From Escherichia phage vB_EcoM_01, in sequence record PP129558: a stretch of DNA of 64,000 nucleotides; one strand, written 5' to 3'. Positions 3,922-53,844 of the stretch are shown here, piece by piece. How positions within the stretch are numbered: position 1 is the first letter of the stretch; every line of letters starts with the position of its first letter. The translations under genes and the position numbers were made by a program. The notes under the pieces were generated by a model that worked only from the letters and a program-made list of their open reading frames with translations, searched no databases and was not told where the DNA came from.

Positions 3922-4019
3922 AAGGAGGAAGATTATGGCTACTTTTCAACAACTGAAAGATGTTTCACGTTTAGTAAGAAAAATCCGAGAAGCAGACGCT
4001 GCTGCTGTCTCTTATACAN

Positions 4020-4609
4020 NNNNNNNNNNNNNNNNNNNNNNNNNNNNNNNNNNNNNNNNNNNNNNNNNNNNNNNNNNNNNNNNNNNNNNNNNNNNNNNNN
4101 NNNNNNNNNNNNNNNNNNNNNNNNNNNNNNNNNNNNNNNNNNNNNNNNNNNNNNNNNNNNNNNNNNNNNNNNNNNNNNNNNNNNNNNNNNNNNNNNNNNN
4201 NNNNNNNNNNNNNNNNNNNNNNNNNNNNNNNNNNNNNNNNNNNNNNNNNNNNNNNNNNNNNNNNNNNNNNNNNNNNNNNNNNNNNNNNNNNNNNNNNNNN
4301 NNNNNNNNNNNNNNNNNNNNNNNNNNNNNNNNNNNNNNNNNNNNNNNNNNNNNNNNNNNNNNNNNNNNNNNNNNNNNNNNNNNNNNNNNNNNNNNNNNNN
4401 NNNNNNNNNNNNNNNNNNNNNNNNNNNNNNNNNNNNNNNNNNNNNNNNNNNNNNNNNNNNNNNNNNNNNNNNNNNNNNNNNNNNNNNNNNNNNNNNNNNN
4501 NNNNNNNNNNNNNNNNNNNNNNNNNNNNNNNNNNNNNNNNNNNNNNNNNNNNNNNNNNNNNNNNNNNNNNNNNNNNNNNNNNNNNNNNNNNNNNNNNNNN
4601 NNNNNNNNN
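4020..4609. other. Assembly gap (N run) with duplicated flanks and adapter remnants
   Basis: 3856-4006 repeats at 4630-4780; CTGTCTCTTATACA at 4007-4018 and ACACCACGTCTG at 4610-4621. Confidence 0.8.
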
Positions 4610-36123: not shown

Positions 36124-36975
36124 NNNNNNNNNNNNNNNNNNNNNNNNNNNNNNNNNNNNNNNNNNNNNNNNNNNNNNNNNNNNNNNNNNNNNNNNNNNNN
36201 NNNNNNNNNNNNNNNNNNNNNNNNNNNNNNNNNNNNNNNNNNNNNNNNNNNNNNNNNNNNNNNNNNNNNNNNNNNNNNNNNNNNNNNNNNNNNNNNNNNN
36301 NNNNNNNNNNNNNNNNNNNNNNNNNNNNNNNNNNNNNNNNNNNNNNNNNNNNNNNNNNNNNNNNNNNNNNNNNNNNNNNNNNNNNNNNNNNNNNNNNNNN
36401 NNNNNNNNNNNNNNNNNNNNNNNNNNNNNNNNNNNNNNNNNNNNNNNNNNNNNNNNNNNNNNNNNNNNNNNNNNNNNNNNNNNNNNNNNNNNNNNNNNNN
36501 NNNNNNNNNNNNNNNNNNNNNNNNNNNNNNNNNNNNNNNNNNNNNNNNNNNNNNNNNNNNNNNNNNNNNNNNNNNNNNNNNNNNNNNNNNNNNNNNNNNN
36601 NNNNNNNNNNNNNNNNNNNNNNNNNNNNNNNNNNNNNNNNNNNNNNNNNNNNNNNNNNNNNNNNNNNNNNNNNNNNNNNNNNNNNNNNNNNNNNNNNNNN
36701 NNNNNNNNNNNNNNNNNNNNNNNNNNNNNNNNNNNNNNNNNNNNNNNNNNNNNNNNNNNNNNNNNNNNNNNNNNNNNNNNNNNNNNNNNNNNNNNNNNNN
36801 NNNNNNNNNNNNNNNNNNNNNNNNNNNNNNNNNNNNNNNNNNNNNNNNNNNNNNNNNNNNNNNNNNNNNNNNNNNNNNNNNNNNNNNNNNNNNNNNNNNN
36901 NNNNNNNNNNNNNNNNNNNNNNNNNNNNNNNNNNNNNNNNNNNNNNNNNNNNNNNNNNNNNNNNNNNNNNNNNNN
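36124..36975. other. Assembly gap (N run) flanked by 148-bp exact duplication
   Basis: 35976-36123 equals 36976-37123. Confidence 0.8.
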
Positions 36976-43155: not shown

Positions 43156-44115
43156 TTAGATTCCAATAATAGTTGCTGCTCGTTTATCTTTGGATCTGGT
43201 GTTTGCTCTACTACGTGACAAACCTCCACAAGATTCACAACGAATGATATCGAAAGAACTTACCGCAGTGTGGTATTGTTTACCAGTAACAACGTGAACG
43301 TGATCACTGCCACAACGAGAACAACGGACCTTCTCATCTGGGTAATAAGCGGATAAGTTAGGATGCTGTGGAATCCACGGAAGGATTTTCATATACAAAT
43401 CACGGAGCGAAACAACATCACCATCATTGTAAATCTGCATACGTTCAAAAGCATCACGATCACCTTCACAACATGCTTTCCATAAAGGGAACCCCTCGTT
43501 ATCCAGTTTTTCACTTTCTGTTTCGAAATATGCTCCCATTTCTTTAAGGGAATTGGAAGGAAGTGCAAATTGTTTCTTAGCTGCCTTCAATGTATCAACA
43601 ACTACATAATTAGAAGGAGGAGCCATATCGTGATATGCAAATCGTTGGTTAATGTATGCACGGTCAAACTTATATCCGTTGTGTGCCACAACTACATCTG
43701 CCTCATTCAGAAGGTTCCAAAGATCTTGGCAAAGCTCCCAATCATCTGTATGATCAATATCAAAAAGAGGATAAGAAGACAAGTTCTTACCTTCCACTTC
43801 ACCAGTATACAGGTCGGCAGAAGAGTAAGATAACAAATAACCCCTACGAATTACTTGATCTGGAGAAATGAAGGCTTTGAATCGACGGAAAGTATATGCA
43901 ATCTCTGGTGCAGTTTCAACATCAATAATTTTAATAACTGGTTGTTTCTTTTTAACTGGCTCTTGTTTACTTGCTCCGAATCGTGCAAGGAAATCGTTCA
44001 CTGTGCTTTTTCTTGTTGGACTACCTAAAACAATTGCTGCAATATTGCGAGAAGACATACCCTCTGCACTCATACTAAGGATATCTGCTTTCTGCTCTTC
44101 TGTTAATCTGCTCAC
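43156..44115 (-). CDS. DEDD-family 3'-5' exonuclease with N-terminal HTH-like region
   Basis: IIDVETA, VVAHNGYKFDR, YNDGDVV exo motifs; C-terminal Cys cluster. Confidence 0.6.
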   Translation of the reverse strand: MSRLTEEQKADILSMSAEGMSSRNIAAIVLGSPTRKSTVNDFLARFGASKQEPVKKKQPVIKIIDVETAPEIAYTFRRFKAFISPDQVIRRGYLLSYSSADLYTGEVEGKNLSSYPLFDIDHTDDWELCQDLWNLLNEADVVVAHNGYKFDRAYINQRFAYHDMAPPSNYVVVDTLKAAKKQFALPSNSLKEMGAYFETESEKLDNEGFPLWKACCEGDRDAFERMQIYNDGDVVSLRDLYMKILPWIPQHPNLSAYYPDEKVRCSRCGSDHVHVVTGKQYHTAVSSFDIIRCESCGGLSRSRANTRSKDKRAATIIGI

Positions 44116-45230
44116 TCTGCCTCCTGTTGCGAGATGTATGACTGAAGCATACTCTCAAATGTTGTATCGTCATTATCCCAGCGTTTCATGTATACCAACT
44201 GGAAAATTGTTTCTATCCATTCATCTGTTGTCATATGGACTTCTTCTCCATCCCAAGAAGTAAAATTAACACCATCTGGGAACCATGAGTAGTAAGTATC
44301 TTTAACTGTTTGGAAAAGTTCTGCTTGAGTTTTACAAGCTGAAAGAAGATTAAAACAAGTAATATCTCCGAACTTAATATCAAAATCTTGATAAGGTCGG
44401 ATACTATCTGTTTTATCTCCCATTAGCATCTGATATGCTAACCAGTAACTGCCCCAACCTTTAACTTCTTTCTTTTTACCTTTATCTACGATCCATATGT
44501 CGCCAATAGACTCGTCAATAAGAATTATATCTGGATTTTTAAATACTCCATCCTCTTTGTAGAAATTAAAAAGGATACTAGGAGTATGTAAACTATCTTT
44601 ATCTATAGATACAACGATATAAGAAAATTTACCCGTCCTTTTATAATCTTTATAACCTTGGAAACCATACTTCTCTAACTCATCATCAGCTTCTATTACA
44701 GTAACAACATCACCATTGTGGAACTCCACAAGATAATCTTTGGTTTCTGAAAGCTGGAGTGGTTTGATATCTAATCGTTCAGATTTATATTCTACAGGCA
44801 TTTTGAAGGCGTGTCTGAAAGTTTTTCCTACGCCAATAACTCCGCAATATTTTTCTAAACGTAGATGTTTTAGAATACCTAAGACTTTTGTTTTAGCTGC
44901 TTGGAAGGTGTGTCCGATATCTTCTGGCGGGTATTGCTTATCAATGATTTCGAACTCTTCCTTTGTGAAGGGACGTTTGTTTTTGGAGGCTCTTTCTGCA
45001 TTTGTATCTCCTAGCCAACCTCCAATTTTAGTCTTGCTTTTACCCCAAAACTCTGTCTTATTTTTAAATTCCTTTTGAGCACCTGAAGGGATGTGCTTCG
45101 CAATGATTGTTCTTTTCTCTAATGCAGACGCTGCTTGGAAAGCGATCTGATCGTAATCAATTGCAGCTATTGTTTCTTCGTTGACATATAAATGAAGATC
45201 TTCAGGTTTAATTAAAATATAACCGCTAAT
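44112..45230 (-). CDS. rnh: T4 RNase H-like 5'-3' exonuclease / flap endonuclease; start codon uncertain (no in-frame ATG/GTG/TTG upstream of 44801)
   Basis: IAAIDYDQIA and MGDKTDSI resemble T4 RNase H; ORF open to stop at 45240 with GGGGGG SD and in-frame ATT at 45230. Confidence 0.55.
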   Translation of the reverse strand: MSGYILIKPEDLHLYVNEETIAAIDYDQIAFQAASALEKRTIIAKHIPSGAQKEFKNKTEFWGKSKTKIGGWLGDTNAERASKNKRPFTKEEFEIIDKQYPPEDIGHTFQAAKTKVLGILKHLRLEKYCGVIGVGKTFRHAFKMPVEYKSERLDIKPLQLSETKDYLVEFHNGDVVTVIEADDELEKYGFQGYKDYKRTGKFSYIVVSIDKDSLHTPSILFNFYKEDGVFKNPDIILIDESIGDIWIVDKGKKKEVKGWGSYWLAYQMLMGDKTDSIRPYQDFDIKFGDITCFNLLSACKTQAELFQTVKDTYYSWFPDGVNFTSWDGEEVHMTTDEWIETIFQLVYMKRWDNDDTTFESMLQSYISQQEAE

Positions 45231-45243
45231 ATTTCCCCCCTAA

Positions 45244-45453
45244 TTATTCATCGTCATCCTCTGTTGAGAATGTTTTAGTATACGGACATTGACGACTTTT
45301 CGGGATTGCTATAACTTCATCTTGGTTAGCGTTAGAATAGTAGCAATATTTTGTATTGCCATTAACTTCAGAATCAGACAAGATTAAAGTAATTTGACCT
45401 GCTGCTACTGTGAAACTAAAAGCTAAAAGAACGACTGTCAGAATCTTTTTCAT
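45244..45453 (-). CDS. Small secreted protein with signal peptide
   Basis: MKKILTVVLLAFSFTVAAG N-terminus. Confidence 0.45.
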   Translation of the reverse strand: MKKILTVVLLAFSFTVAAGQITLILSDSEVNGNTKYCYYSNANQDEVIAIPKSRQCPYTKTFSTEDDDE

Positions 45454-53463: not shown

Positions 53464-53844
53464 TCCATATTCNGTCTCTTATNNNNNNNNNNNNNNNNNN
53501 NNNNNNNNNNNNNNNNNNNNNNNNNNNNNNNNNNNNNNNNNNNNNNNNNNNNNNNNNNNNNNNNNNNNNNNNNNNNNNNNNNNNNNNNNNNNNNNNNNNN
53601 NNNNNNNNNNNNNNNNNNNNNNNNNNNNNNNNNNNNNNNNNNNNNNNNNNNNNNNNNNNNNNNNNNNNNNNNNNNNNNNNNNNNNNNNNNNNNNNNNNNN
53701 NNNNNNNNNNNNNNNNNNNNNNNNNNNNNNNNNNNNNNNNNNNNNNNNNNNNNNNNNNNNNNNNNNNNNNNNNNNNNNNNNNNNNNNNNNNNNNNNNNNN
53801 NNNNNNNNNNNNNNNNNNNNNNNNNNNNNNNNNNNNNNNNNNNN
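53464..53844. other. Assembly gap (N run) with duplicated flanks
   Basis: 53322-53463 repeats at 53860-54002; AGAGACAG adapter remnant at 53845-53852. Confidence 0.8.

Follow-up and report, generated by a model that had tools for sequence, protein, structure and literature searches.

The gene for a predicted 5' nuclease in Escherichia phage vB_EcoM_01 (PP129558) raises the question of where translation begins in a conserved reading frame that offers no canonical start codon. The window, namely the 64,000-nucleotide stretch of this genome that was analysed, comes from a phAPEC8-like Phapecoctavirus, and the nuclease frame lies on its minus strand, where it is open from a TAG at 45242-45240 to a TGA at 44114-44112. 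The first ATG, GTG or TTG in the frame is the ATG at 44801, which is preceded by 146 sense codons. The first-pass annotation had pointed out that the frame is open above 44801, that this upstream part contains no in-frame ATG, GTG or TTG, and that it encodes an N-terminal IAAIDYDQIA motif (approximately 45170-45141), and all of this holds on re-reading of the minus strand. From base composition, a stop-free stretch of 146 codons has a probability of ~7e-5, and at the empirical start-codon frequency of 5.1%, a run of 143 codons without ATG, GTG or TTG has one of ~5e-4. In the 26 other ORFs of the window that reach 200 codons or more, start-free runs do not exceed 109 codons. Of the 66 open frames with 150 codons or more, the nuclease frame is the single genuine start-less outlier; the start-less frames at 36.1-37.0, 3.9-4.7, 53.4-53.9 and 2.4-2.8 kb are artefacts of N-runs or of antisense reading.

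The nuclease gene belongs to a three-gene unit, the upstream edge of which is marked by a promoter-like site and a terminator-like hairpin (Table 1). The TAA of the preceding 69-aa ORF (45246-45244) is located 13 nt before an in-frame ATT, in a stop-to-Shine-Dalgarno (SD) arrangement that is kept across the clade, and the phi92 counterpart of this ORF, gp086, carries a signal peptide annotation. An in-frame ATG at 45251, overlooked in the first-pass annotation, lies beyond the upstream TAG and reads ATG AAT AAT TAG, being closed by that stop.

Table 1. Features of the nuclease locus (window coordinates; all on the minus strand)
Feature	Position	Strand	Basis or remark
Promoter-like site TTGACT-17-TATTAT	45521-45493	-	consensus scan
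Terminator-like hairpin after the promoter-like site	45492-45469	-	terminator annotated in Schickermooser too
Upstream 69-aa ORF, signal-peptide-like N-terminus	45244..45453	-	
Mini-frame ATG AAT AAT TAG, outside the gene	45240..45251	-	in the nuclease frame only in the 6-G allele
Shine-Dalgarno element UAGGGGGG	45235..45242	-	duplex with 16S 3' end, -10.9 kcal/mol
Spacer AAAT, 4 nt, SD to start codon	45231..45234	-	
ATT, inferred start codon (AUU, read by fMet-tRNA)	45228..45230	-	comparative contexts and ESCO13 annotation
Full-length nuclease CDS, 372 codons + TGA, predicted FEN-family 5' nuclease	44112..45230	-	
IDYDQ motif, end of strand beta1, in the un-annotated N-terminal part	45147..45161	-	
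Internal ATG (Met144), start in most GenBank annotations	44799..44801	-	no SD, duplex +0.4 kcal/mol
EADD acidic motif, residues 180-183	44682..44693	-	
DKD acidic motif, residues 210-212	44595..44603	-	
GDKTD motif, residues 271-275, H3TH-region acidic pair	44406..44420	-	
GTGA overlap of nuclease TGA and GTG start of the DnaQ-like exonuclease gene	44112..44115	-	
DnaQ-like exonuclease gene, downstream of the nuclease	43156-44115	-	

The N-terminal 143 codons are real coding sequence under purifying selection. Over codons 2-143, pN ranges from 0.16 to 0.26 and pS, which is saturated, from 0.68 to 0.80; tblastn with the full-length query covers at least 80% of it in 900 of 1232 phage records, and the 143-aa N-terminal part alone matches PHROG 107 (E = 5e-7). 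An alternative reading takes the 229-aa protein from the ATG at 44801 as the sole real product and the 143 codons above it as untranslated or as a decaying remnant. Public records lean this way, as the short form is the sole ORF annotated in most of the GenBank/RefSeq records inspected, ~50 annotated close records carry no feature over the N-terminal region, and 385 contigs of the protein collection carry the 229-aa sequence. Nevertheless, the reading is very unlikely: the internal ATG lacks an SD, the upstream codons remain open and under purifying selection where synonymous sites are saturated, and they encode several predicted beta strands and an Asp25 that none of 50 homologues lacks (Asp27 is kept in 90% or more of the sequences). 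Moreover, Met144 is not conserved outside the subfamily, other lineages having Leu, Ala, Thr or Gln in its place, and canonical-start orthologues are full length (~365-380 aa). Orthologues that begin at the downstream Met and lack the N-terminal motif, which had been raised as the observation that would speak against an upstream start, are not what is found, since the orthologues keep the motif.

The product of this full-length frame is a predicted flap-endonuclease-family (PIN-like) 5' nuclease of 372 aa. Its AlphaFold model (pLDDT 96.1, pTM 0.90) is confident from residue 1 and places several beta strands within residues 16-137, and the top 14 Foldseek matches all belong to the FEN / 5'-3' exonuclease family; the model accordingly has the alpha/beta fold of FEN type that is known from solved FEN structures. 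The EADD, DKD and GDxxD motifs are invariant and align to EADD132, SSDGD157 and GDKKD200 of T4. T4 RNase H, T5 D15 FEN, E. coli ExoIX and mycobacterial FenA share with the phage nuclease the EADD, (S)xDxD and GDxxD acidic motifs and the beta1-Asp-helix N-terminal motif, whereas identity to them is 12-21% and the phage protein is ~100 residues longer. In T4 numbering, the acidic metal-binding set of the family comprises D19, D71, D132, D155, D157, D197 and D200. Asp25 sits at the end of beta1 like T4 D19, an equivalence drawn by motif and secondary structure only, while the T4 D71 position aligns with Gly133, which is invariant, and conservation falls instead on a second Asp (Asp27, in DxDQ). 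Sequence profiles reach this family poorly. Specifically, the window protein has no Pfam match even at E <= 1, PF02739 (5_3_exonuc_N) included; PF02739 is matched by 16 of 50 homologues, and the six that were re-scanned score 23-27 bits, under the gathering cut-off of 34.3, over profile positions 28-146 only, missing beta1. Pfam, NCBIfam and PDB sequence searches with the single protein or a 50-sequence profile returned nothing useful, and hhalign against the genuine T4 RNase H is weak (E = 0.0023, probability 12.5%) and does not reach the N-terminus.

Translation of this 372-aa nuclease, with a probability that we put at about 0.85, would begin at the AUU codon at 45230-45228, the in-frame ATT at 45230 that had been noted earlier and is present as described. 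The SD ahead of it forms a duplex of -10.9 kcal/mol, against -10.2 and -10.3 kcal/mol for the neighbouring genes. In the relatives, the homologous start codon was collected from 66 loci that reduce to 44 unique contexts, and it is ATC in 10 of them, ATT in nine, TTG in nine, ATG in seven, GTG in five, ATA in three and CTG in one; these contexts are related by descent and not phylogenetically independent, so the counts inflate the number of independent events. No codon other than ATG, GTG, TTG, CTG, ATT, ATC or ATA occurs at this position in the 44 unique contexts, and the chance of an all-NTG outcome at an ordinary Leu/Val position is ~9e-4. In four loci (L016, L084, L085 and L087), the ATC is immediately 3' of an in-frame TAA, which leaves no room for an upstream extension. 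The rare AUU start that the first-pass annotation had offered as one of two options is strongly supported by this combination of only initiator-compatible codons in the 44 contexts, a strong SD and a stop directly upstream in four loci.

Between SD and start, the orthologous contexts read have 3-5 nt, with a longer case of 6 nt in an ATG user (L019), and the near-cognate users of the clade have SD energies between -9 and -13 kcal/mol, with one exception (L099) at -4.2. Such contexts also bear on initiation at another near-cognate codon just downstream, for which the ATT codons at 45218 and 45212, four and six codons on, are candidates: both are in frame and ahead of the catalytic motif, and the window sequence alone is insufficient to exclude them. 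We consider a start at either of them unlikely, as neither has a good SD context or spacing (-5.5 and -2.4 kcal/mol, respectively), their positions hold ordinary sense codons (CTA, TTA) in other lineages, and the Gly-Tyr pair that follows the proposed start at 45230 is conserved out to Vequintavirinae, where it stands directly behind an ATG, GTG or TTG start.

The G-run ahead of the AUU occupies 45240-45235, its first G being the last base of the TAG, and not 45234-45239 as the first-pass annotation had placed it. It is five G long in most records, six in the window as well as in three further records, and seven in BI-EHEC, while the sequence downstream of it is identical across the 5-, 6- and 7-G alleles. 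Since its length varies, no sequence on its upstream side can be coding, and comparison of the alleles locates the run in the untranslated spacer, outside the coding sequence. A homopolymer of differing length is also a place where a sequencing or assembly error might be suspected, with a true ATG or GTG at 45230, or another run length that puts a canonical start in frame, and at six G the upstream ATG at 45251 does fall in frame. The probability of such an error, the other option raised earlier, is next to nil. Across a 223-base segment containing the ATT, identity to the 64 close genomes, all assembled independently, is 98.2-99.6%; ATT is seen in all nine close records or loci read directly, and ATT, ATC, ATA or CTG stands at the homologous position in diverged genera. 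Furthermore, no G-run length yields a canonical start, as with six G the frame of the ATG meets the TAG at its fourth codon and with five G the nuclease frame reaches the upstream ORF only across its TAA, and a canonical start is likewise missing from lineages in which there is no G-run (AGGAGG nn TAA ATC).

The same alleles weigh on recoding, in which an N-terminal extension would be added by ribosomes that start at the ATG at 45251 and read through the TAG at 45242-45240, or that leave the 69-aa ORF by a frameshift or by read-through. In the window, that ATG shares the frame of the nuclease behind a modest SD (GAGGA, -5.8 kcal/mol); in relatives with five G, the upstream ORF shares that frame too, with its TAA as the sole barrier, and in a metagenomic lineage (P0005, 444 aa), the two ORFs are fused with Gln in place of the stop. 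Recoding in the window is nonetheless extremely improbable. The frame relationship shifts with five, six or seven G among nearly identical phages, and with five or seven G the mini-frame is no longer in register with the nuclease frame; a fusion with the upstream ORF is discarded on account of these broken frames and of the signal peptide, which would be senseless on a DNA nuclease. Read-through of the TAG or a genetic-code oddity is rejected on the same broken frames. Neither a slippery heptamer, on direct reading of the sequence, nor a strong downstream structure (weak fold, z = -2.0) is present, and TAA directly precedes the start in other lineages. Conservation begins exactly at the ATT/ATC codon, while the codons before it vary by lineage.

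A near-cognate codon at the proposed start is shared with a group of relatives. The loci with such codons fall into a single clade, composed of Stephanstirmvirinae and a metagenomic sister group, in which protein identity goes down to ~50%, and none of its sampled members has a canonical start, whereas sister lineages have TTG, GTG or ATG at the homologous position. This distribution points to a single ancient switch to a near-cognate start, with the codon drifting since then among AUU, AUC, AUA and CUG. Over the first ~143 codons, in-frame ATG, GTG and TTG are depleted ~3-fold.

As for the mechanism, the strong SD UAGGGGGG, 4 nt upstream, would position the AUU at the P site of the ribosome, where initiator fMet-tRNA would pair with it despite a third-position mismatch. 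Ribosomes that end the 69-codon ORF would stop 13 nt upstream, over the SD, and may re-initiate at the AUU, so that translational coupling to the upstream ORF may contribute. The local mRNA fold pairs the SD and the start in part and weakly (z = -2.0), and a regulatory role of this structure was dropped on account of that weakness. AUA, AUC, AUU and CUG form a measured near-cognate class with 1-2% or 0.02-3% of the AUG rate (bioRxiv 10.1101/063800); as codons of the AUU class initiate at ~0.02-3% of that rate in E. coli, synthesis of the nuclease would be low. Proteomic or Ribo-seq evidence on the start of this nuclease was not found in the literature searched. That the weak start is a selected feature, and not a tolerated accident, is a tentative idea to which we give the smaller share of belief; if it were selected, the nuclease dose would be held to a few percent of the AUG level. 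Possible reasons include toxicity of the nuclease in excess, the avoidance of msDNA-sensing retron defences, which FEN-type phage nucleases can trigger (PMC12475279), and a dependence on IF3, through which expression could rise as host translation control decays in infection.

Initiation of this kind is already known, and the AUU start described here is almost certainly, on sequence comparison, a further case of what infC and pcnB display. The E. coli infC gene, which codes for IF3, likewise has an AUU start behind an SD, and there the AUU serves feedback by the gene's own product (autoregulation). Such feedback is, of the two genes, known for infC only. IF3 discriminates against AUU-type start codons, as a passage of PMC9723500 states. 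The E. coli pcnB gene, for poly(A) polymerase I, has an inefficient AUU start and a product harmful in excess, and, according to PMC2939334, which cites Binns & Masters 2002, a downstream AUG was at first taken for its start. The phage gene resembles it as a nucleic-acid enzyme with an AUU start, most annotations of which also begin at a downstream ATG, and a dosage-limiting rationale for the weak start is suggested by this likeness. Conversely, the pcnB start is experimentally proven and the phage start is inferred, and in the phages the start codon drifts among AUU, AUC, AUA and CUG clade-wide, in a viral gene that stands right behind an upstream ORF. In Streptomyces, the GTC start of sigR is, as described in part of PMC5472188, repressed by IF3, which was demonstrated experimentally; in both cases, a non-canonical start would set or regulate expression via IF3 discrimination, although sigR uses another codon class and is a cellular regulator and not a viral gene. 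Lastly, the T4 rnh gene begins with ATG, as read in the T4 sequence, in contrast to the ATT here.

The near-cognate start is almost certainly a habit of the whole phage clade that nearly all public annotations have missed, and gene callers restricted to ATG, GTG and TTG are unable to mend the nuclease annotation. The literature searched on phAPEC8 and ESCO13 start codons and on phage ATT starts does not discuss the nuclease gene. The corrected 372-aa model bears on function prediction, structure prediction and phage engineering, and the clade would represent a clean natural case of near-cognate initiation (AUU, AUC, AUA, CUG) in a phage that infects E. coli, for which the sister lineages with TTG, GTG or ATG provide an internal evolutionary control. 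It is also a tractable system in which to ask whether the weakness of the start is selected to cap the nuclease dose and whether IF3 or coupling modulates it in infection. Nine records read directly (eight Phapecoctavirus and a related Klebsiella phage) hold only the 229-aa C-terminal fragment, which is devoid of the invariant Asp25 and of several predicted strands, and in records from related genera, the starts are placed at chance GTG or TTG codons. Among ~57 annotated close relatives, the N-terminal part is covered by annotation in ESCO13 only (KX552041.2; product YP_009786567.1 in RefSeq), where the CDS is annotated from the same ATT, with an RBS feature and without comment.

Comparative sequence evidence gives good support to the nuclease being a near-cognate-initiated gene that would be translated from an AUU start, a reading sustained by the start codons of its orthologues, by its Shine-Dalgarno sequence (SD) and by the conservation of its N-terminus. 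Direct reading of the minus strand gives the order T-TAG-GGGGG-AAAT-ATT-AGC-GGT-TAT, in which the TAG closes the frame on its 5' side, and no further stop follows until the TGA. The earliest ATG, GTG or TTG of this frame in the ORF listing is the Met144 codon, leaving 146 sense codons without a canonical start. The chance of a 146-codon open run is P ~7e-5 from base composition, and that of a 143-codon start-free run is P ~5e-4 with ATG, GTG and TTG together at their empirical in-ORF frequency of 5.1%; in the window's 26 other long ORFs, start-free runs reach at most 109 codons, so that the pattern is improbable as a chance event. The minus-strand reading and the ORF listing confirm, with small corrections, the first-pass annotation of a frame open 5' of 44801 and devoid of canonical starts: the GGGGGG run it reported is present one base away from where it was placed, and the absence of an in-frame ATG holds 3' of the TAG, an in-frame ATG ended by that same TAG (ATG AAT AAT TAG) having been overlooked. 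Every other apparent start-less outlier in the window is either a masked N-run or an antisense frame. The N-runs, accompanied by scattered single N, make several reading frames look open, with neither start nor stop codons; these frames are not biology.

Coordinates of the features discussed (in the window unless a locus is named)
Feature	Position	Strand
Promoter-like site and terminator hairpin	~45.5 kb	
In-frame ATG overlooked earlier	45251	minus
Stop TAA of upstream 69-codon ORF (direct reading)	45246-45244	minus
TAG closing the nuclease frame	45242-45240	minus
G run	45240-45235	minus
Proposed nuclease start ATT	45230-45228	minus
N-terminal region	44802-45227	minus
Asp27 codon	45150-45152	minus
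Spurious small CDS	44879-45001	minus
Gly133 codon	44832-44834	minus
Internal ATG (Met144)	44801	minus
Nuclease stop TGA	44114-44112	minus
GTGA overlap	44112-44115	minus
DnaQ-like exonuclease gene	43156-44115	minus
Terminator	43.15 kb	
Masked N-runs	4019-4609, 36124-36975, 53483-53844	
Spurious small CDS, locus L002	999-1121	
Spurious small CDS, WPEC1 (L140)	1330-1554	
'Exonuclease' CDS, WPEC1 (L140)	1632-2623	

An assembly error, either in the homopolymer or through an ATG misread as ATT, had been proposed as the alternative to an AUU start, and it is rejected. The window belongs to a phAPEC8-like Phapecoctavirus (Stephanstirmvirinae) and shares 99.7% identity with Schickermooser in the nuclease region; the 223 bases spanning the ATT are 98.2-99.6% identical to 64/64 matching phage records, and ATT was read directly in 9/9 close records or loci inspected. 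The run counts five G in most records, six in the window, PNJ1809-36, ETEC-TG and 536P1, and seven in BI-EHEC, differences that, as recorded, are compatible with both real variation and homopolymer sequencing error. The SD duplex energy moves from -9.3 to -11.4 kcal/mol with run length, and the AAAT ATT AGC GG that follows is identical in all compared records whatever the G count. Since runs of 5, 6 and 7 G are all represented in phages that are almost identical, the upstream sequence stands in each of the three possible frames relative to the nuclease; therefore, nothing 5' of the run can belong to the nuclease protein, which removes together the assembly error, a TAG read-through from the upstream in-frame ATG and a fusion with the upstream signal-peptide ORF. 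In the metagenomic homologue P0005 (444 aa), Gln stands in place of the stop that lies between that ORF and the nuclease (…DEDDEQEGNI…), so that gene callers predict a fusion protein; the nuclease of this lineage is probably still initiated internally, at an Ile codon.

The first 143 codons are truly coding. Specifically, tblastn with the conceptual 372-aa protein matches 1232 phage records, 900 of which extend over 80% or more of its length, and codons 2-143 show a non-synonymous divergence from relatives of just 0.16-0.26 versus a saturated pS of 0.68-0.80. In the IDYDQ motif, all of 50 homologues have Asp25 and at least 90% have Asp27, and the 143-aa part alone suffices for a match to PHROG 107 ('exonuclease'; E = 5e-7). 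The SD duplex energy is -10.9 kcal/mol for the ATT and -10.2 and -10.3 kcal/mol for the neighbouring genes, versus +0.4 kcal/mol for the annotators' internal ATG, which is without an SD and encodes a Met144 not kept outside the subfamily. Across 31 orthologues compared, in-frame ATG, GTG and TTG amount to 1.5% of the N-terminal region in the near-cognate clade versus 4.7% in canonical-start relatives, ~3-fold fewer (Mann-Whitney p 1e-4, kinship among sequences being ignored), and to a similar 5.0% versus 6.2% of the C-terminal regions; the N-terminal depletion could be the result of selection against initiation at internal codons that follow a weak start.

Orthologues were drawn from GenBank phages, IMG/VR and metagenomes, with the start position anchored by the conserved peptide after the start, (S)GY... 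or SxF.... At the homologous codon, 44 unique contexts (66 loci) carry ATC (10), ATT (9), TTG (9), ATG (7), GTG (5), ATA (3) or CTG (1), and none carries any other codon. The set coincides exactly with the codons differing from AUG by at most one base on which E. coli ribosomes initiate: AUG, GUG and UUG at 10-100% of the AUG rate, and AUA, AUC, AUU and CUG at 1-2%, for which another assay gives 0.02-3% (bioRxiv 10.1101/063800). Leu and Val codons at a normal hydrophobic position inside a gene would all be NTG with P ~9e-4, given the codon usage of the same genes. In the contexts read, the codon lies 3-5 nt after an AGGAGG-like SD, except for one ATG user (L019) with a 6-nt spacer. In four loci (L016, L084, L085 and L087), ATC is the first codon past an in-frame TAA (AGGAGGnnTAA-ATC GGn TAC) and the first canonical codon comes only 35-142 codons later, past the catalytic Asp. 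L017 (ATA) and L018 (CTG) are closely related and differ at exactly the homologous codon. A neighbour-joining tree places every near-cognate user in one clade, composed of Stephanstirmvirinae-like phages and a metagenomic sister group, and none of its sampled members has a canonical start; the sister of the clade is an ATG user, and Vequintavirinae-like lineages carry TTG, GTG or ATG. Most simply, the clade would have switched to a near-cognate start once, long ago, and the codon would then have drifted among AUU, AUC, AUA and CUG. The gene offers an unusually informative comparative record for near-cognate initiation.

Searches of Pfam, NCBIfam and PDB sequences with the window protein return no match, and some distant homologues give sub-threshold PF02739 matches. 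The AlphaFold2 model, built on a 50-sequence alignment and of very high confidence (pLDDT 96.1, pTM 0.90), matches the plastid exonuclease 9l55 (score 16.0), mycobacterial FenA 6c33 (14.4), ExoIX 3zd8 (13.8), T5 FEN 1ut5 (13.7) and T4 RNase H 1tfr (13.1), in an order concordant with the Foldseek ranking. Against the T4 RNase H sequence, hhalign aligns EADD, S(I/S)D(K/G)D and GDK(T/K)D and, together with the fold matches, this makes the initial 'T4 RNase H-like' label right at the family level. The family-specific active site appears to depart from that of classical FENs both in the invariant Gly133 that hhalign sets opposite T4 Asp71 and in the conserved second Asp two residues on from Asp25 (Asp27, DxDQ). 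The modelled nuclease is best described as a divergent FEN of greater length, with an apparently altered set of acidic residues. A 229-aa product from Met144 would lack Asp25 and every one of the predicted strands (residues 16-25, 39-46, 93-100 and 127-137).

The nuclease start combines a strong SD, a 4-nt spacer and AUU, and the upstream ORF stops 13 nt 5' of the AUU, effectively on the SD. At the other end, the nuclease TGA overlaps the GTG start of the DnaQ-like exonuclease ('DNA polymerase exonuclease subunit') gene, whose strong SD lies within the nuclease 3' end, so that the two genes look translationally coupled. This three-gene unit is bounded by a promoter-like site with a terminator hairpin and by a second terminator. 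Initiation by fMet-tRNA at the AUU would proceed at a few percent of AUG efficiency, re-initiation by ribosomes terminating at the upstream ORF may assist, and the outcome would be a low nuclease dose. The closest precedent is pcnB, with an AUU start, an enzyme harmful in excess and an N-terminus initially mis-assigned to a downstream AUG (PMC2939334). The lack of a canonical start in every sampled member of the clade and the N-terminal depletion of ATG, GTG and TTG hint that the weakness of the start is selected. A speculative rationale for a low dose is retron triggering: a type I-A retron is triggered by the T3, T5 (D15) and T7 nucleases, which the cited paper groups with the T4 and T5 flap nucleases, through cutting of msDNA, and the T4 nuclease does not trigger it (PMC12475279).

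The start of this gene is a widespread annotation error. Among 60 close records listed, the N-terminal region is annotated as exonuclease only in ESCO13 (KX552041.2), whose CDS starts at the ATT and includes an RBS feature; its 372-aa product has the accessions AQM50955.1 and YP_009786567.1 and belongs to a UniRef100 cluster of 12, and the ESCO13 paper makes no mention of the start codon. The 229 aa from the internal ATG are annotated in Schickermooser, phAPEC8, PNJ1809-36, Ro121lw, EF1-1, BI-EHEC, TSP7_1, ETEC-TG and, likewise, Klebsiella phage phi1_175008; phi92 has a downstream GTG start with the note 'No RBS identified; weak Prodigal statistics', phiWec179 a chance TTG start and, in a large protein collection, gene callers begin the protein at a wide range of chance positions. 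In several GenBank records, the 'empty' N-terminal region is occupied by spurious CDSs of 30-40 aa (phAPEC8 gp266, Ro121lw_00103, WPEC1 CDS144/CDS145, ETEC-TG CDS0151/CDS0152); in the window, the counterpart of the 40-aa one falls inside the nuclease gene, out of frame. In WPEC1 (PV659873), the 'exonuclease' CDS is truncated at its 3' end, and the place of the DnaQ-like exonuclease after it is taken by a tail-completion gene in the opposite orientation, the result of either a rearrangement or a join made in the assembly.
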